A stretch of 64,000 bases of DNA from contig DAOUKR010000012.1 of assembly GCA_034421095.1 (NCBI GenBank), positions 9,592 through 73,591 on the forward strand, given 5' to 3'. The notes under the pieces are model-generated. The model was not told where the DNA came from and searched no databases. It worked only from the letters and a program-made list of their open reading frames with translations. Made by a program: the position numbers and the translations under genes. Within the stretch, counting starts at the first letter, position 1, and each line of letters begins with the position of its first letter. Of the stretch, positions 4,248 to 44,578 are shown in pieces. The stretch comes from Dehalococcoidia bacterium (GTDB lineage Bacteria > Chloroflexota > Dehalococcoidia > Lucifugimonadales > JAGWBF01).

Positions 4248-5660
4248 ATGGTGAGTGTTAATGACGGAAATGGCCTGACTACCAAACTTGCAAGTTTCTA
4301 CTCTGCCCTGGACTATGAAGCTCTATCTCCCCAGGTTGTGGATAGGGCCAAGTATTTCTGCCTGGACTATCTGGCTGTGGCGCTCAGAGGGTCCACTACC
4401 CCTTCCTCGGCCTCCATGCAGAAGGTGGTGCGGACCCTGAGCCCCGGTGGTGACTCGGTCATTATGGGTACTTCCTTCCGTGCATCACCGGAATACGCGG
4501 CCCTCGCAAATGGGACCGCTGCACACAGCCTGGAGATGGACGACGTAAACAACGATTCGTCGCTGCACCCGGGGGTAGCCGTGTTCCCGGCGATATTCGC
4601 TTGTGGCGATCTCGTAGAGTCACAAGACCGAGCGCCCATACAAGGCCGGGATGTGATAGTGTCCACTGCGACAGGGTATGACCTGATGATTAGGCTAGGC
4701 AGAGCTCTTGACCCTCGTAAGCACTATGCCAGGGGCTTCCATCCCACCGGCACGTGTGGGACCTTCGCGGCAGCACTGGTAGCCTCTAATCTGCTAGGTC
4801 TGGATACTGAACGGACTTCATGGGCACTGGGAATCGCCGGAAGCCAGGCCGCCGGCTCACTGGAGTTTCTTGCCCAAGGGGCCTGGACGAAACGGATGCA
4901 CCCCGGATGGGCCGCCCACAGCGGCCTCGTTGCCGCAATAATGGCCAAGGAGGGGTTTATCGGCCCGACCTCCATACTGGAGGGACGCGATGGCTTCCTG
5001 CACGGCTACTCCGACGCCTCCGACGTTGCCAAGACCGATGAAGGTCTCGGAGACGTATTTTACATAAATAAGACCAGCATCAAGCCCCATGCCTGCTGCC
5101 GCTACAATCAAGGCCCCATAGACTGCATCCTGGACATTGTGCACACCAATAACCTCAAACCCCAGGAGGTGGAGAAGGTTAAAGTAGGGGTGCTCAAGGC
5201 TGGCTTCAACGTTGTCGCCGCTCCCGAAGAGCAGAAGCGCAATCCCAAGAACGTGATTGATGCCCAGTTCAGTATGCCATTCGGAGCCGCCATAGCTATC
5301 ACTTACGGGCAGGCTTCCCTGGACGAGTATACGGAGGATATGTTGGGACGGTCCGACATCAAAGACCTTATGAATAGGGTCGAGTGTGTACAGGACCCTG
5401 CCCTTGAGGTGAACTATCCGAGCCAGTGGCCCGCATGGGTCGAGGTGGAGACACGGGATGGCCGCACGCTAAAGTCACAGATCGAATATCCCAAGGGAGA
5501 CCCGGAGAACGCCCTCTCATGGGACGAGCTAAAAGATAAGTTCCGGAATCTCACCCAACCGGTCATCTCGCCCAGCCGGCAGGAAGAAATAATAAATGCC
5601 GTAGATTCCCTTGAAGCTCTGGATGACGTCAGGGTGCTGGCCCGCATGACCAGCGCTTAG
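4248..5660 (+). CDS. MmgE/PrpD family protein (2-methylcitrate dehydratase-like)
   Basis: 470 aa. The N-terminus (...LSPQVVDRAKYFCLDYLAVALRGS) and overall length fit the MmgE/PrpD family. AAGGAGG RBS. Confidence 0.85.
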   Translation: MVSVNDGNGLTTKLASFYSALDYEALSPQVVDRAKYFCLDYLAVALRGSTTPSSASMQKVVRTLSPGGDSVIMGTSFRASPEYAALANGTAAHSLEMDDVNNDSSLHPGVAVFPAIFACGDLVESQDRAPIQGRDVIVSTATGYDLMIRLGRALDPRKHYARGFHPTGTCGTFAAALVASNLLGLDTERTSWALGIAGSQAAGSLEFLAQGAWTKRMHPGWAAHSGLVAAIMAKEGFIGPTSILEGRDGFLHGYSDASDVAKTDEGLGDVFYINKTSIKPHACCRYNQGPIDCILDIVHTNNLKPQEVEKVKVGVLKAGFNVVAAPEEQKRNPKNVIDAQFSMPFGAAIAITYGQASLDEYTEDMLGRSDIKDLMNRVECVQDPALEVNYPSQWPAWVEVETRDGRTLKSQIEYPKGDPENALSWDELKDKFRNLTQPVISPSRQEEIINAVDSLEALDDVRVLARMTSA

Positions 5661-5714: not shown

Positions 5715-6914
5715 GTGAGTATGCCACTGGAAAGCATTCGTATACTTGACCTCTCCCAGGCCCTTGCAGGACCGGTATCCACTCGTATTCTGGGAGACCT
5801 TGGCGCAGAGATAATCAAGGTAGAACCTCCTGGTGTCGGCGAGTCGGCCCGCCGCATGGGGACCTCCTTTCTCGAAGGCGAGAGCATGTACTACATGACC
5901 TTCAACCGGAACAAGAAGGGAATCACCCTGAACCTGCGGTCAGATGAAGGCCGGAAGATTTTTTACGGCTTGGCGCAAGTCTCGGACGTCGTTCTTGACA
6001 ATTTCAGGCCCTGGGTCACCACCCGCCTGGGTGTGGACTTTGAAACCTTGAAGAAGGTTAATCCTGCAATTGTCTGTTGCTCCATATCAGGATACGGACG
6101 GGACGGACCGTATAGAGACCGGCCCGTCTTCGATTCGGTAATCCAGGGCCTATCGGGGGCTATGAGCGTGACCGGTGAGCCGGACGGGCCGCCCGCAGTG
6201 ATGGGGTTCGCAGTGACAGACATAGGTGGTGGCTGGGGTGCCACCGTAGGCATCCTCGCGGCCCTGATGGCTCGGGAGCGAACCGGAGAGGGGCAACAGG
6301 TGGACTTGGGCCTTCTTGACATACAGCTTACCTATCAGGGACATCTCTCGGAGATGTATCTAGCCAGGGGCGCGATTCCCGGTCCCGGCGGCTCAGTTCA
6401 GTCTGCCAACCTGCCCAACGGGGCCTTCCGCGCCAAAGACGGCAGGTATCTCCAGATTCACTGCGCTACACAGAAATTCTACGAGGCCCTTGCCGAAATG
6501 CTGGCCGCCAACGTAGATGGTTTTGAGGAGCTGCCTAAGGATGAGCGGTTCATCTCCATAGATGGCCGAAGGAATAACTGGGATGATTTGAAGGTCTTGT
6601 TGGAAAAGGCCTTTGCCACCAAAACCGCCGACCAGTGGATGGAGTTGATGGGAGATGAGTTACCCATAGCTCCGGTCAACAACATAGAAGAGGCATTCCA
6701 CGACCCCCAGGTCCTCCACAGAAATATGCTGGTGGAGGCGGAGCATCCCCTGGTGGGCAGGTACAAGATGCCCGGCAACCCCATAAAGATGGGCCAGGAG
6801 GAGACCTTCCTGCCAGCGCCCACCTTGGGACAGCATAACCGGCTGGTTCTGGGAGATGTGCTGGGATACTCAGAGAAGGAAATCGAGGAATTTACCGAGA
6901 AGGGCATCATCTAG
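5715..6914 (+). CDS. Class III CoA-transferase (CaiB/BaiF family)
   Basis: The N-terminus IRILDLSQALAGPVSTRILGDLGAEIIKVEPP is the signature start of family III CoA-transferases. Confidence 0.87.
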   Translation: MSMPLESIRILDLSQALAGPVSTRILGDLGAEIIKVEPPGVGESARRMGTSFLEGESMYYMTFNRNKKGITLNLRSDEGRKIFYGLAQVSDVVLDNFRPWVTTRLGVDFETLKKVNPAIVCCSISGYGRDGPYRDRPVFDSVIQGLSGAMSVTGEPDGPPAVMGFAVTDIGGGWGATVGILAALMARERTGEGQQVDLGLLDIQLTYQGHLSEMYLARGAIPGPGGSVQSANLPNGAFRAKDGRYLQIHCATQKFYEALAEMLAANVDGFEELPKDERFISIDGRRNNWDDLKVLLEKAFATKTADQWMELMGDELPIAPVNNIEEAFHDPQVLHRNMLVEAEHPLVGRYKMPGNPIKMGQEETFLPAPTLGQHNRLVLGDVLGYSEKEIEEFTEKGII

Positions 6915-28714: not shown

Positions 28715-28896
28715 TTTTACTCCAATTTCTATATATGTAATAATATGGGCTGGTCGTATCAATCTCAATTCTACCATAAATCTCCGGCTGCTAAGTATCT
28801 AACTTTTATCAAGACGGCAACACTTTCTTGCACTACTCGGCCCTCGGTGCTATACTCATCCGACTTCATTGCTTGACTGGTGCGTGCACGGGGAAT

Positions 28897-29856
28897 ATGG
28901 GAGAGAAGCAGACGGTTATAGTAAAGGTGCCAGCCACTACCGCTAATCTGGGCCCCGGTTTCGACTGCCTCGGAATGGCCCTGGACCTGTGGAACCAGGT
29001 GAGGGTCGAGGTGCTGGACACTTCCCCGTGGAGCGATGGGCCTGTCGTTCTGGTTCAAGGTCAGGGTTCAGTAAAGTTGCCTGGAGACGGGGGCAACCTG
29101 GTCTACCGCGCCATGGCCCATCTGTTCGGCGAAGCGTGCCTGGATATGCCGGCGCTGCGGCTCCACTGCCATAATGCTATACCACTCAAACGTGGACTGG
29201 GCAGTAGCTCAGCAGCCATAGTCGGGGGTCTCGTAGCGGCCAACCATTTGCTATCGGAGCACGCCCAGTCCGGCGGTCGTGCTTTCTCCAAGGAAGAGTT
29301 GCTGGACATGGCGGTGCATATTGAAGGTCACCCGGATAACGTAACTCCCGCACTGTTGGGGGGACTTCAGCTAGTGGTGCAGGAAGACGATGTTCTGTTG
29401 GCTGCCCCCGTGCCTGTTCCCGACGACGTGCGCGCCGTGGTTTTTATACCTCACGCTACAATAGCCACAGAAGAGGCCAGAGCAGTCCTGCCCGCTAGCA
29501 TCAGGCGGGAGGACGCGGTGTATAATATGGGAAGGACCGCTCTCTTGGTAAACGCTCTAGGCACCGGAAGGTTGGGCGACCTTTACCTTGCAACCAGAGA
29601 CAGGATTCACCAGCCATACCGTCAGAAGCTGTTCCCTGCGATGAAAGTTATTTTTGAGGGCGCACTGAAGGGTGGTGCCCTCGGTGTATTCCTTTCAGGC
29701 AGCGGGTCCACGATACTGGCTTTGACCAACGGGCGCGAGATGACGGTCGCCTACGAGATGGCCGAGGCAGCCCGTCAGGCCAATGTCGAAGGGGAAGTAA
29801 AGGTGACGAGGCCCACTTCTCTGGGCGCTCATCTGGCGGCCGACGAGAGGAATTGA
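28897..29856 (+). CDS. thrB: Homoserine kinase
   Basis: VKVPATTANLGPGFDCLGMAL and the GHMP kinase motif PLKRGLGSSSAA. Confidence 0.9.
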   Translation: MGEKQTVIVKVPATTANLGPGFDCLGMALDLWNQVRVEVLDTSPWSDGPVVLVQGQGSVKLPGDGGNLVYRAMAHLFGEACLDMPALRLHCHNAIPLKRGLGSSSAAIVGGLVAANHLLSEHAQSGGRAFSKEELLDMAVHIEGHPDNVTPALLGGLQLVVQEDDVLLAAPVPVPDDVRAVVFIPHATIATEEARAVLPASIRREDAVYNMGRTALLVNALGTGRLGDLYLATRDRIHQPYRQKLFPAMKVIFEGALKGGALGVFLSGSGSTILALTNGREMTVAYEMAEAARQANVEGEVKVTRPTSLGAHLAADERN

Positions 29857-33123: not shown

Positions 33124-33397
33124 CCACTCCGTCTAACGTGTACATAGTGCCTGACTTGGTACTGCACCCTCCCCCTTGCCCTTGTTTGGACCCAGCCCAG
33201 ACAAGGGCCGTTGCTTGTCCCCGGCGGCGCTAAATGAGAATGTGTAGTGCCTCGGGTAAACTCTCTTGTCTGCTGTCACTACATCGGAAACTGCCGGTAT
33301 TCTCTGCTTGTATGGGTAATGCCGGGCTGAATGCTAACACTTGCTGAGAATACCGAAAGCGGGGCCTTGCCGAATAAGCAGCACTATCCGCCGCCCT

Positions 33398-33426
33398 TTG
33401 ACGCTGTATCTCTGGTAGGGTAATAT
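33398..33426 (+). promoter_or_regulatory. Sigma-70-like promoter candidate
   Basis: TTGACG (33398-33403), a 17-nt spacer, then TAATAT (33421-33426), about 27 nt upstream of the ATG at 33453. Confidence 0.4.
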
Positions 33427-33452
33427 ACGTGTATTGAGGAGGCGAGGGTGCA

Positions 33453-34487
33453 ATGAAGGCGGTTTACATAAATCAGCCTGTTGAGGGATTGAATAGCCTG
33501 ATTCACGGCGAAAGGCCAGACCCGGAAGCCGGGCCAGGTGAGGTGGTGCTCAGGGTTCGAGCATCGGCCCTCAATCATGCGGACCTCAACGTTCTTGAGG
33601 GTCGCACCTCTACGCGCGGTTCTCCTCGCATCATGGGGATGGACATTGCGGGCGAGGTAGTCCAAGTAAGTCCCGTCGTCTCCTGGCTTCAGGAGGGGGA
33701 CAGGGTGCTGGTGGACAACCGAATCAAGTGTGCCACTTGCGAGCCTTGCCTCAACGGGAGCGATGAGTATTGCGTCAACCAGATGCGCCTGGGAGTAGAC
33801 GTAGACGGAGGCCACGCACAACACTGCGTCGTGCCCGCCGTCAATGCCCACCGGATACCCGGTTGGATGGGGTTCGAAGAGGCCGCATCCCTCCCTATAG
33901 CCGCTCATACGGCCTGGCACTGTCTGGTGGTCCGGGGGCAACTCCAACCCTGGGAAGATATACTCATCCACGCTGCGGGAAGTGGAGTCGGCAGCATCGG
34001 TCTGGAGATAGCAAAGCATATAGGAGCCAGAGTCATTGTCACTGCCGGGAGTGACTGGAAATTGGAGAAAGCCAGGGAGCTTGGGGCAGACGAGGTGATT
34101 AACTATAACACCACCCCCAAGTTCAGTGAGCGAGTCAGGGAGTTCACGGGTGGCAAGGGCGTGGACATCATATTTGACATCGTAGGTGCTGCCGTGTGGG
34201 ACGAGAGCCTCCTGAGCCTCAAGCCCGGCGGAAGGCTGGTCATTACCGGCACCACCTCCGGCTCCCGCTATGACATGGACCTCAGGGCCTTGCAGGGTAC
34301 TCCCCTCACCCTCATGGGCAGCGGAGGACGCAGCCGCCGCAGTTTTGCTGACATGATGAGGGTCATAAACAACGGAGGCCTGCGGGGTGTTGTTGGCAAG
34401 ACATTTCCCCTTGAGGATGCCGCCGATGCCTACAAGACTATGGAGGACCGCAACTTCTTCGGCAAGCTGGTGCTTCAAACACCCTAG
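33453..34487 (+). CDS. Zinc-type alcohol dehydrogenase / quinone oxidoreductase (MDR superfamily)
   Basis: EVVLRVRASALNHADL...GMDIAGEV...HAAGSGVGS (Rossmann fold). GAGGAGG RBS. Confidence 0.85.
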   Translation: MKAVYINQPVEGLNSLIHGERPDPEAGPGEVVLRVRASALNHADLNVLEGRTSTRGSPRIMGMDIAGEVVQVSPVVSWLQEGDRVLVDNRIKCATCEPCLNGSDEYCVNQMRLGVDVDGGHAQHCVVPAVNAHRIPGWMGFEEAASLPIAAHTAWHCLVVRGQLQPWEDILIHAAGSGVGSIGLEIAKHIGARVIVTAGSDWKLEKARELGADEVINYNTTPKFSERVREFTGGKGVDIIFDIVGAAVWDESLLSLKPGGRLVITGTTSGSRYDMDLRALQGTPLTLMGSGGRSRRSFADMMRVINNGGLRGVVGKTFPLEDAADAYKTMEDRNFFGKLVLQTP

Positions 34488-34825
34488 GTCTTGCTCTTGA
34501 GGTATGCCGTAGAAGGGTAAGATTAGATGCTTTCGCCGCAATGGGTTCAGAAAGGTATAATTTGGGGCGTGAACAATGAGGAGGGCGGATGAATGGCAGA
34601 GGCGATCGCATCCTCCGGCGTGTACTTGCTGGCGGTGCAATAAAGAGAGGCTGGACAGACTGGAACCTTGGTATAGGCGTCTCTGGCGTGCTCTTTTGCG
34701 GAAGGAAAGGTAGGCAGTCGAGGGAAAAGGATGTATCATTAAACACGCTAGATTTACCTCAAGGGCCGGGAGCCAACGAGGTTAGAGGTTAAATGAAGTT
34801 AGATGTCAAAAGATAAGGGGGGTAT

Positions 34826-38135: not shown

Positions 38136-39431
38136 TCAATCCAGGATAGCTATGGCATCCACGTATATCAGGAGGCCCGGCGAGGGCACCGAGTTGACCA
38201 CCACTCCGGTGGCAGCCGGAAATGTGGTCCCAAACAACTCTTTTCGCAGGTCTCCCACCGCCCGGTAGTTGTCCAGTCCCTGGGGGGTGACGTACTCAGT
38301 GGTCTTGCAGATGTCGTTCAGGGTGCCCCCGGCAGCCTCTACCACCTCGCGAATGTTTGCATAGGCTTGTCTGCACTGGGCAATTACGTCGTCCCCACCC
38401 ACGATGGCCCCCGTCCGAGGGTCAATGGCAGTCTGGCCTGATATGAAGAGATATTTGCCATTTCTGACCCCTGCTGGACACGGCAGACCGCTGCGGTGCC
38501 CAGCCCACCCGGACACCTGGACTTCCTGGCGCTGGCCACCCGTGACGGCCATGCTGTCTATCTCCAGCAGGGCCTCCGGCCGTAAGAGGCTATTCATAAC
38601 TATGCCGCTGGAGGCCGGGAGCACACCCTGGGAGAACCGTTGCCGGACTTCGGCGGTAGAGGCATAGCCGGACACACAGTCCGGCGTGATGTAGTCCATG
38701 GTTTTCACGAGGTCAGCGGGACTCGCTCCTGCTGCTTCAAGTACCGGCCTCATAGTATCGTATATGGCTGCCGTCTGTTCAGCGGCGGTGCTTCGTGCCC
38801 GCTCCTCTCCTGACCCCGAGTAGTCGAAGGTCCCTATCATGCCCGAGAGGCACAGGAGGTCTCCCGCTCTGACGCCAGGCTGGTAGGTCAATCGGTCATA
38901 GCGTGCCCAGCCGGGGTTTATGAACTCTTTCTCCTCATCCAGCACGGCAATTGCGTCTACCTCAATAAGGGCATCCGGGCGCAACAGTCGCTCTACCATG
39001 ATACCCGTAGCGACGGGCCAGCTGCCATCGAAATACTCCTGGCGGACCGCTCCGGTGCCTCTGTAGTCGGCCAGACCTGCAGGGTTAACATAATCAACTG
39101 TCCTGACAACATTCTTGAAGCTGCCTCCGGCGGCCTCCAGCACCCGCTTGATTTTCTCGTAGGCTATGCGGGTTTGCTCCACTATGCCACCTTTGCACAC
39201 CACCCGATTCAGTGCCGGGTCGTATTCGCTGGCCGTCTCTCCGGACAGGAAAAGGACCCCCTTCTTCTCCACTCCCATGGAGAAAGTGTATCGCTTGTAG
39301 TCCAGCCAGGGGAAATCATCGGGTTCAATTATTCGCTTCTCGCTCACGTACGTCCTCCCGGTGCGCGGTGGGTATAAGCCAGGGATTCGGCTCTTTGACA
39401 CGCCTGCAGCTATGGGAAATGCCGTGTCCAC
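38136..39431 (-). CDS. Triple tandem RidA/YjgF/L-PSP domain protein
   Basis: There are three internal repeats of ~130 aa. Each ends with a RidA-like C-terminal strand: VDYVNP...ALIEVDAIAV, MDYITP...ALLEIDSMAV, TEYVTP...LLIYVDAIAI. Confidence 0.8.
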   Translation of the reverse strand: MDTAFPIAAGVSKSRIPGLYPPRTGRTYVSEKRIIEPDDFPWLDYKRYTFSMGVEKKGVLFLSGETASEYDPALNRVVCKGGIVEQTRIAYEKIKRVLEAAGGSFKNVVRTVDYVNPAGLADYRGTGAVRQEYFDGSWPVATGIMVERLLRPDALIEVDAIAVLDEEKEFINPGWARYDRLTYQPGVRAGDLLCLSGMIGTFDYSGSGEERARSTAAEQTAAIYDTMRPVLEAAGASPADLVKTMDYITPDCVSGYASTAEVRQRFSQGVLPASSGIVMNSLLRPEALLEIDSMAVTGGQRQEVQVSGWAGHRSGLPCPAGVRNGKYLFISGQTAIDPRTGAIVGGDDVIAQCRQAYANIREVVEAAGGTLNDICKTTEYVTPQGLDNYRAVGDLRKELFGTTFPAATGVVVNSVPSPGLLIYVDAIAILD

Positions 39432-39552
39432 TATACCATAGGACTAACGGCGGTACAATTTCTCCCGTCGGTTGCGGTCAGCCAACGGTATAAAGGTATA
39501 CATGACCTCAATGCGGTGGCATAATGTGTGCAGCATCATAAGGGAGTATGTA

Positions 39553-40485
39553 ATGCGAATATGTTCCTTCCTGCCAAGTGCTACGGAAATCGTCTATGCT
39601 CTCGGCTTGGGTGGCCAACTTTACGGAGTCAGCCACGAGTGTGACCATCCATCCGACGCCCGGAAGCTGCCCAGGGTGGTGCATAGCATCTTTGAGGACC
39701 GCCAATACTCCAGCGCCGAAATACACGCGATTATCGAAGAGCGTCTGAGGGAGGGTAAGGGCATCTACGACATAGATGAGGATGTCCTCAGGGGGGCTGC
39801 GCCGGACTTGGTGCTGACCCAGGAGCTGTGCGCTGAGTGAGCCTTGACTGCGCAGCAGGTTGCTGACGCTACGGAAAAGCTACCCAAGAGACCTGAAATC
39901 GTATCCCTGGACCCGACCTCGCTGAAAGACGTGTTCGACGACATCCTGCGAGTGGGCCGGCTGACGGGCGCTGAGGACTCCGCCGAACGCTTCGTGACCT
40001 CTCTCAAGGGTAGGGTTGACTCAGTGGTGGACAGAGCGTCACTGGCGGCCAGCAGACCCAGGGTAGCCTGCCTGGAGTGGATAGAGCCTGTCCTGGTTGC
40101 CGGCCACTGGGTACCGGAGATTGTGGACATGGCAGGCGGCGAGGACTGTCTTGGGGATAGAGATAAGCCCTCCTTCAGAGTAGAGTGGCAGCAGGTCCTG
40201 GAGCAACGCCCTGACGTAATCGTGGTCACGCCGTGCGGCTTTGATGTGAGGCGAGGTCTGCAGGAGGTTGGTCAGCTGACATCACAGGAGGGTTGGAAAT
40301 CCTTGCCCGCGGCACAAAGGGGGCAGGTGTACGTTGTGGACGCCAGTTCCTACTTTAGCCGTTCGGGTCCCAGGTTGGTGGACGGGCTGGAGATGATGGC
40401 TGAGATAATCCACCCGGAGATATTCTCGGGTATGGTTCCGTCGGAAGGTGCTTCTCGCATTTACCGGGACTCTTTTGTGGCCTGA
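39553..40485 (+). CDS. Cytoplasmic BtuF/TroA-like (helical-backbone periplasmic-binding-fold) protein interrupted by one in-frame TGA at 39838-39840 (candidate Sec codon, or a pseudogene)
   Basis: MRICSFLPSATEIVYALGLGGQLYGVSHECDHP...PDLVLTQELCAE[TGA]ALTAQQV...CLEWIEPVLVAGHWVPEIVDMAGGE...PCGF...SYFSRSGPRLVDGLE reads as one continuous family member across the stop. AAGGGAG RBS before the ATG at 39553. Confidence 0.6.
39850..39869 (+). promoter_or_regulatory. Hairpin 9 nt downstream of the in-frame TGA (bacterial SECIS candidate)
   Basis: GCG-CAGCA-GGT-TGCTG-A-CGC gives 8 bp with one bulged A and an apical GGU loop. The loop starts 18 nt after the TGA. Confidence 0.35.
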
Positions 40486-40493
40486 ATGGTTGA

Positions 40494-41228
40494 CTAGTTA
40501 AGTCTGGCTCCTTTGTAGGGGCTTCGCCTGATTAATTCTTCCTTAATTCTCTGGTTTGCACCTTCCAGGAGCGGTATCTCGTACTGTAGGCGTTCCCCAA
40601 TGAATGGCAACTCTAAAAGGCGCTGCTTGGCCCGGGAGGGTAGCTCAAGGTACTGAGCTATGGAATATGATAGTCTCCCTGCATCCGCAGGAATAACGTC
40701 CTGGCGTGACCACCCTCCCTGAAGACCGGACAGGTTTCTCAGATATTCCACAAATAGCTCTCCGGATTTCTCCAGAACACCTTCGTCCAGGTCCCCCGTC
40801 TCCTCGGGCAGGAATTGTACCCTTCCTTTGAGGTAAGGGGCCTGGTGGAGCGTTTCTACTATGCGAAAACGCCTTTCCCCAACGGTGGCAAGGTTCATGC
40901 GTCCTTCTTCAAGACGCTCCACTTTGGTGATGCGAGCGGTTGTGCCGGTCAGGTAAGGACTCGCCGGTCCGCCCACCTCCATTCCTTCCCGAATCATCAC
41001 GACGCCGAAAGGCTCGCCGGCCTCCAGGCACTCGCCAATCATCAGCTTGTACCGCTCCTCGAAGATATGCAGGGGCATCTGCATCCCCGGGAAGAGGACC
41101 ACATTCAATGGGAACAACCTGATCTCTTCAATTGTCTCGTCATCCTGCGGTTGGCGACCTTCCATTTCGGTGAAAAGTATAGTACCAGGAACCCCAAAAC
41201 TCAAGCCTTCACATACGTTGTGGTACAA
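40494..41228 (-). CDS. LON N-terminal (substrate-binding) domain protein
   Basis: IRLFPLNVVLFPGMQMPLHIFEERYKLMI is the classic Lon N-domain start. The start codon is uncertain (TTG at 41228 or ATG at 41165). Confidence 0.8.
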   Translation of the reverse strand: MYHNVCEGLSFGVPGTILFTEMEGRQPQDDETIEEIRLFPLNVVLFPGMQMPLHIFEERYKLMIGECLEAGEPFGVVMIREGMEVGGPASPYLTGTTARITKVERLEEGRMNLATVGERRFRIVETLHQAPYLKGRVQFLPEETGDLDEGVLEKSGELFVEYLRNLSGLQGGWSRQDVIPADAGRLSYSIAQYLELPSRAKQRLLELPFIGERLQYEIPLLEGANQRIKEELIRRSPYKGARLN

Positions 41229-44503: not shown

Positions 44504-44578
44504 TCCCCAGTAGCTCAGCGGTAGAGCGGGCGGCTGTTAACCGCTAGGTCCTAGGTTCGAATCCTAGCTGGGGAGCCA
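44504..44578 (+). tRNA. tRNA-Asn (anticodon GTT), CCA encoded
   Basis: TCCCCAG-TA-GCTC-AGCGGTA-GAGC-G-GGCGG-CTGTTAA-CCGCT-AGGTC-CTAGG-TTCGAAT-CCTAG-CTGGGGA-G-CCA forms a complete cloverleaf. Confidence 0.9.

Follow-up and report, generated by a model that had tools for sequence, protein, structure and literature searches.

An in-frame UGA in a BtuF-like protein gene of Dehalococcoidia is a predicted selenocysteine codon followed by a covarying SECIS-type hairpin

Results

The 64-kb stretch of Dehalococcoidia DNA analysed here (the window) carries, on its plus strand, two open reading frames at 39472–39840 and 39844–40485 that lie in one frame and have the TGA at 39838–39840 as their sole separation. 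Translation agrees with the initial annotation, which had described the pair in these terms and had proposed a 310-residue read-through product. From the ATG at 39553, 95 codons lead to the internal TGA and a further 214 to a terminal TGA, giving a complete gene at 39553–40485 of 310 codons plus the terminal TGA, an extent supported by the translation, the PF01497 match, the homologues and the dN/dS values given below. A Shine-Dalgarno-like AAGGGAG (39540–39546) is located 6 nt 5′ of the ATG. The peptide around the internal TGA reads ...LTQELC-A-E-(TGA)-ALTAQQVADA, in which the C93-A-E-U96 motif (TGC GCT GAG TGA) occupies 39829–39840, as defined by the alignment of Cys-form homologues and by the ends of the Sec-form ORFs. 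The true terminator, the TGA at 40483–40485, is not followed by a hairpin; a further in-frame stop, TAG, comes four codons later. Gene callers split the gene into an ORF of 95–122 aa and another of 184–213 aa.

The read-through product matches Pfam Peripla_BP_2 (PF01497) with E = 6.6e-20 and has 6172 homologues at E ≤ 0.001; in sequence as well as in fold, BtuF and heme SBPs are the best matches in the PDB. Full-length Cys-form homologues, for which NCBI gives the name “cobalamin-binding protein,” are 304–325 residues long and 50–58% identical over 97–100% of the length. The full-length homologues share the N-terminus MRI(C/V)S, and the window protein opens directly with the first β-strand (MRICSFLPSATE). 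This start is common to the homologues and stop codons lie close upstream of it in L006 and L008, which leaves no space for a signal peptide. The earlier description of a signal-peptide-less BtuF/TroA-like protein is therefore borne out by both the Pfam match and the position of the start.

Four cysteines, C30, C93, C96, and C228, are invariant in the 56 full-length homologues. In the Cys forms, C93 and C96 belong to the motif LC-x-V-C-A, both being present in 56/56 sequences, and the TGA at 39838–39840 falls exactly on the column of C96, the second Cys of the CxxC. The homologue alignment that had been named as a check thus places a Cys at the TGA column without exception, and the motif LC-x-x-C-A, which the initial annotation had given with the TGA at its second Cys, is indeed that of the family. 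In the window the codons of Cys30 and of Cys228, the latter within a PCGF motif, are located at 39640–39642 and 40234–40236; both residues are family-invariant in the alignments of 56–57 sequences.

The TGA is found at the homologous codon in 17 of the 17 loci read, at 57–93% identity. The four closest database matches (86–93% identity) span only the C-terminal 59–69% of the query, and their contigs display the same split, with read-through yielding a 310-codon gene and the TGA at codon 96. A scan of GTDB representative genomes retrieved three Dehalococcoidia MAGs (86%, 69%, and 57% identity), all with TGA, as well as homologues with Cys at this codon in Acetothermia, Obscuribacteraceae, and Nitrospirota. 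One further locus, L011, came from a DNA-pattern scan of JGI metagenome contigs; a protein-pattern scan of these contigs with the C-terminal part gave no confirmed relative. Orthologues, to which the initial annotation had pointed as a second check, therefore keep the TGA down to 57% identity, and in all 17 loci the ∼215 codons that follow it are free of frameshifts and extra stops.

The N-terminal fragments tell of the same ORF end on a larger scale. Searching with a profile of the N-terminal 95 residues gave 1022 proteins. The best 120 are all 95–112 aa long and end in LC-x-x immediately before the Cys column; their endings are QAICEV (51), QELCGE (25), QELCAE (23), QELCEE (9), and others (12). 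The named sources of such fragments are Dehalococcoidia, marine metagenomes including Tara Oceans, and an Entotheonellaceae MAG, which is also among the TGA-bearing loci. There is evidence that the Sec form is widespread in soil and marine Dehalococcoidia. Chance falls far short of explaining why a TGA stands on an invariant Cys column both across 17 independent loci and across at least 120 protein clusters.

We measured selection separately on the two sides of the TGA. dN/dS (Nei-Gojobori) is 0.06–0.28 in codons 1–95, 97–125, and 126–305, and synonymous sites are saturated (dS >1) in comparison with L006 and L007. Codons 97–125 are under purifying selection though they precede any consistent restart codon. 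In the closest pairs, dS in codons 97–125 is about half of that in the N-terminal part (0.20–0.25 versus 0.50–0.59); the counts are small, and the lower value fits an additional, overlapping constraint that would act on the RNA.

A hairpin at 39850–39869 starts 9 nt past the TGA and consists of 5+3 bp, with GCGCAGCA on the 5′ side, a GGU loop at 39858–39860, and UGCUG, a bulged A at 39866, and CGC on the 3′ side. The sequence and the predicted fold both agree with the 8-bp hairpin, bulged A, and GGU loop of the initial annotation, and the hairpin is present in the minimum free energy structure of every Sec form. In the window, its 3-nt loop beginning with GG, its 5-bp upper stem, the 17 nt that separate the UGA and the loop, and its energy of −10.4 kcal/mol agree with the four criteria of the bSECIS model of Zhang & Gladyshev 2005, including an energy below −7.5 kcal/mol, as these are quoted in PMC13188914. 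The single-sequence fold is not exceptional against dinucleotide shuffles (z = −0.08 to −1.46). Since a single sequence folds no better than its shuffles, the significance of the hairpin derives from the comparison between loci only.

We made this comparison with 12 distinct Sec-form sequences. The upper stem and the loop are kept, with GGU invariant, and 95.8% of cells pair, compared to 87% after column shuffling and 19–73% when the partners are slid. Three pairs display changes on both sides (A-U to G-C; G-C to A-U; G-C to C-G or U-G), and the covariation score of 0.273, compared to 0.114 in the shuffles, was reached by 0 of 500 of them. The element is missing in five Cys-form genes, where just 1–4 of the 8 pairs form at the hairpin position, including genes with a similar peptide (STQQVVDA, TRQVSDA). 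A fourfold-degenerate Val codon is GUU in every Sec form; Cys forms with Val at this position have GUG or GUC instead. The covariance and conservation analysis proposed in the initial annotation is accordingly positive, with three compensatory pairs. Part of the hairpin conservation coincides with conserved residues of the protein (R/Q-Q-V-A). A search of Rfam at the hairpin site returned no match at the gathering score or up to E = 10, and no SECIS family.

By analogy with the standard bacterial pathway, from which we take the recoding mechanism, the hairpin at 39850–39869 would act as a SECIS, recruiting SelB-GTP-Sec-tRNA(Sec) to the ribosome at the UGA, and the terminal UGA at 40483, lacking such a hairpin, would terminate normally. 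The gene is ended by TGA in 13 of the 17 loci (the window and 12 others) and by TAA or TAG in the rest; TGA is therefore still a working stop there. TGA also ends 5 of the 41 long ORFs in the window, and a general reassignment of the codon is excluded. Motif and tRNA scans found no selA, selB, selD, or tRNA-Sec in the 64-kb window or in 13 loci, which amount to <2% of a genome, too little for the negative to be informative. Two Dehalococcoidia MAGs are in the BSepDB top ten for selenoprotein genes, with 49 and 46 (PMC13326102), which lends support at the level of the class. A search of the window for TGA codons with coding potential on both sides returned only the site at 39838 and one at 29854, the latter being an ordinary stop between GHMP kinase and aspartate kinase genes.

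Selenocysteine was weighed against four other explanations of the internal TGA. A sequencing or assembly error is flatly refuted, the identical codon being present in independent ENA, NCBI, JGI, and Tara assemblies. The initial annotation had left a choice between a selenoprotein and a fresh nonsense mutation that would make the gene a pseudogene in this strain. Such a mutation would account for a conserved domain interrupted by a stop and reported by gene callers as two fragments, but the 17 loci that keep the TGA have diverged to synonymous saturation, the ORF end recurs in at least 120 protein clusters, secondary lesions are absent, and dN/dS after the stop is low throughout. Conservation of the TGA together with purifying selection downstream of it refutes the pseudogene, and the Cys column, the TGA, the hairpin, and the selection pattern all favor the other option.

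A truly split gene, in which translation stops at the TGA and restarts and polypeptides of 95 and ∼200 residues assemble, has a very slim chance of being correct. Split domains do exist in bacteria and the window has a TTG two codons past the TGA; however, this TTG is not conserved (ATA or ATT in L003–L007, ATC in L012 and L014), called restarts range from +2 to about +30 codons, and the stretch ahead of them is under purifying selection. The cut would hit the CxxC, at a loop in the N-terminal lobe, and a split leaves unexplained why the stop codon is in every case a TGA that coincides with the Cys column and has the hairpin behind it. Decoding of the UGA by a Cys, Trp, or Gly tRNA instead of as selenocysteine has a slim chance as well. 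With cysteine at this position the ancestral motif would be regained, the Sec machinery of this genome is predicted only, and Mukai et al. reportedly described a SelB-like delivery of Cys by a tRNA-Cys resembling tRNA-Sec. Against such decoding stand the ordinary use of TGA as a stop in the window, a local hairpin that fits the SelB-dependent SECIS model, the richness in selenoproteins of the class Dehalococcoidia (PMC13326102), and the cataloguing of the family as a selenoprotein (PMC9312934, PMC13188914). We conclude, on the basis of sequence comparison, that 39553–40485 is very probably one gene for a 310-residue cytoplasmic protein with the BtuF/heme-type class III fold of substrate-binding proteins, with UGA 96 read as selenocysteine in a C93-x-x-U96 motif.

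The relationship between Sec and Cys forms can be followed at one locus. The Cys-form gene P0002 (locus L021) shares a ValRS-MFS-CoaBC-PanK neighborhood with the Sec-form loci L015–L017, and these genes are a Sec/Cys orthologue pair. In a low-resolution neighbor-joining tree of the 95-residue N-terminal parts, the Sec forms fall into groups of 64 and 39 and several small ones that are interleaved with Cys forms. The tree, which covers 95 residues only and is used here as a hint, suggests that there has probably been more than one switch between Cys and Sec.

The AlphaFold2 model obtained for the Cys orthologue P0002 is confident (pLDDT 91.6, pTM 0.90). Its best Foldseek matches are the heme binders RhuT, ShuT, PhuT, BhuT, and IsdE together with BtuF, with E-values of 1e-12 to 1e-17 and TM-scores of 0.79–0.84 on target length. 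C93 and C96 are located in a loop (residues 91–99) between a strand (86–90) and a helix (100–108), C30 follows strand 23–27, and C228 follows strand 222–225. By alignment and model, C93/U96, C30, and C228 are thus all in loops at the C-terminal ends of β-strands. In the class III fold, these positions line the cleft between the two lobes.

The neighboring genes provide a functional lead in two of the seven Cys-form loci, where the context is of the B12 type. The Cys-form gene of an NC10 MAG has a cobalamin riboswitch (RF00174, 101 bits) 134 nt upstream, and a second riboswitch precedes the neighboring operon of TonB-receptor, secreted SBP, FecCD, and ABC genes. In an Acetothermia MAG, the Cys form follows genes for FecCD, an ABC ATPase, and a PP-loop protein on the same strand and precedes that for ATP:corrinoid adenosyltransferase (CobO). 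FecCD/ABC genes adjoin only the Cys-form loci L008 and L022. The neighbors in the window (RidA-like, Lon N-domain protein, M20 peptidase) are unrelated to B12, as are those in the Dehalococcoidia relatives, where the constant neighbor is a convergent gene with a Lon N-terminal domain that stands beside Sec and Cys forms alike. Rfam gave no riboswitch upstream of the window gene.

Discussion

The two ORFs at 39472–39840 and 39844–40485 should be merged in the annotation as one selenoprotein gene. Hundreds of fragments deposited in metagenome protein sets need the same merge; they comprise at least 120 clusters of 95-residue proteins called “hypothetical” or “iron complex transport substrate-binding.” Since published catalogues include the family (see below), the TGA represents a correct selenoprotein call and not a new discovery. 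The Sec codon itself is low in novelty, and the cobalamin link is the part worth following.

A literature search found no described function for signal-less PF01497 proteins. Given the structure matches and the cobalamin gene context, a cytoplasmic corrinoid role is the best guess, and we hold it possible, with somewhat less than even confidence, that the intracellular task of the protein is to bind or process a corrinoid (B12-type cofactor). With their thiol and selenol, C93 and U96 could then form a redox couple or coordinate the cofactor metal (cobalt). A more specific version, which we consider unlikely as it stands, would make the family a cytoplasmic corrinoid chaperone, decyanase/dealkylase, or reductase that takes over imported B12 ahead of adenosylation, with the cleft cysteines, joined in Dehalococcoidia by a selenocysteine, ligating or attacking cobalt. 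To our knowledge, no contact between a selenolate and cobalt has yet been described in B12 trafficking. The gene-context link to cobalamin makes the function testable; if the proposal is true, it would provide a role for the large signal-less BtuF-like family.

Among selenoproteins with an SBP fold, the SaoB and SaoX proteins (Haft & Gwadz, bioRxiv 10.1101/2022.07.06.499078; J Bacteriol 2023) resemble the window protein in that Sec stands beside Cys in the presumed ligand pocket and database entries end at the TGA. They differ in being secreted proteins or lipoproteins with CU or TU motifs, in their relationship to another class of binding proteins (3VVE, 4ZV2, 4NMY), and in belonging to the nine-gene SAO locus of anaerobic Firmicutes and others; they have no sequence relationship to the BtuF-like CxxU family.

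The closest structural comparison is to the class III (cluster A) B12 and heme binding proteins, which share the two-lobe fold and PF01497: E. coli BtuF (1N2Z/1N4A), V. cholerae BtuF (5YSC), ShuT (2R7A), PhuT (2R79), RhuT (5Y8B), BhuT (5GIZ), and IsdE (2Q8P). In contrast to E. coli BtuF and its kin, the window protein has no signal peptide, and the four invariant Cys/Sec residues of its family are missing in them. The window protein scores 42.7 bits with the BtuF equivalog model NF002894 (NCBIfam), far below the cutoff of 234, and neither btuCD nor other transporter genes lie beside its gene. With signal peptide, equivalog-level score, and transporter genes all missing, it is not BtuF itself. 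The four invariant Cys/Sec at strand-end loops, which in the class III fold face the binding cleft, are an addition of this work to what is known of the family.

Known B12 proteins provide a possible chemical parallel. BtuM carries out decyanation with a Cys that ligates cobalt, and CblC/CblD perform thiol-dependent B12 processing. A Cys acting on the cobalt of cobalamin could parallel the cleft Cys/Sec of the window family, although there is no homology and the family's link to B12 is one of gene context.

The hairpin resembles bacterial SECIS elements in its position within the coding sequence right after the UGA and in its small apical loop beginning with G-G/U. It is unrelated in sequence to the E. 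coli fdhF and fdnG hairpins, a loop of 3 nt is the smallest that the bacterial model allows, and binding of SelB is a prediction here.

A BtuF-type CxxU selenoprotein is listed in Table 1 of Zhang et al., Appl Environ Microbiol 2026 (PMC13188914; example MDE0719563.1) and in a Biomolecules 2022 review from the same group (PMC9312934; example RUA21600.1), contrary to the initial annotation, which did not know the family from selenoprotein catalogues. Both catalogues cite Peng et al. 2016 (PMC5029168) for the BtuF-like family, which goes unmentioned in the accessible portions of that paper's text and supplements. The catalogued family shares with the window protein a BtuF-type domain, a single Sec in a CxxU, and a basis in computational prediction only. 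Matched by these descriptors (BtuF domain, CxxU, “cobalamin-binding protein” name), the two are, with high confidence, the same family, although neither example accession turned up in the cluster look-ups. SECIS, distribution, and function of the family are absent from the catalogues, and the present analysis adds to the BtuF-like CxxU family a defined SECIS with covariation.

Genomic Neighborhood of the Selenoprotein Gene

On its 3′ side, the selenoprotein gene lies tail-to-tail with a minus-strand gene (window 40494–41228) whose product consists of a Lon substrate-binding (N-terminal) domain on its own; 8 nt separate the selenoprotein stop codon from this gene. The same convergent pair is formed by the Sec forms, homologues with TGA at codon 96, in the related loci L001–L003, L012/L013, and L015–L019, and the convergent Lon N-terminal domain gene is also present beside the form with Cys at this codon (Cys form) in L023. 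Among the loci that share this gene, the genes upstream of the Sec or Cys form vary. In the window, a 121-nt gap separates the selenoprotein gene from a divergent gene (38136–39431, minus strand) whose 431-residue product contains three Ribonuc_L-PSP (RidA-like) stretches, and this divergent arrangement is kept in L001–L003. Mobile elements occur by the gene in some relatives: IS3-type (HTH_Tnp_1 and rve) and IS110-type transposases have inserted between the RidA-like and selenoprotein genes in L002 (2563–4889), and an IS3-type element together with a group II intron (RF00029) is found 3′ of the Cys form in L021 (6314–8114).

In one Sec-form locus (L016:5286–5330), the upper stem of the SECIS-type hairpin reads CGA instead of CGG, creating an A·C mismatch at the third pair. 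This pair is intact in L015 and L017, which are near-identical to L016. The mismatch is a variant that the hairpin tolerates or else an error in the assembly.

TGA Usage and Other Features of the Window

TGA is the rarest stop codon among the 41 long ORFs of the window (5, compared with 16 TAA and 20 TAG), despite a G+C content of 55%. Elsewhere in the window, only the TGA at 29854–29856 has coding potential on both flanks. This codon terminates a GHMP-kinase gene (28828–29856) in the usual way and is not a recoding site; an aspartate kinase gene comes next, in the same frame from 29875.

A long minus-strand ORF (33384–34739) overlaps another on the plus strand (33453–34487); the predicted 450-residue product of the minus-strand ORF had no Pfam match at E≤1e-5. 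A tRNA-Asn(GUU) gene (44504–44578, plus strand), located downstream of a luciferase-like monooxygenase gene, has a syntenic copy in L001–L003.

Cobalamin Context of Cys-Form Homologues

The NC10 MAG locus L022 (JAGWQH010000063.1) contains two cobalamin riboswitches (RF00174), the first (4629–4866, 101 bits) directly 5′ of the Cys-form homologue P0067 (5001–5915), and the second (6020–6223, 88 bits) 5′ of a TonB receptor/Peripla_BP_2/FecCD/ABC operon. This arrangement puts one member of the BtuF-like family, P0067, in a B12 regulon. In an Acetothermia MAG (L008:233–4170, JAJHSH010000052.1), FecCD, ABC ATPase, and Diphthami_syn_2 PP-loop protein genes are followed on a single strand by a Cys-form homologue without a signal peptide, directly 3′ of which lies an ATP:corrinoid adenosyltransferase gene (CobA_CobO_BtuR).
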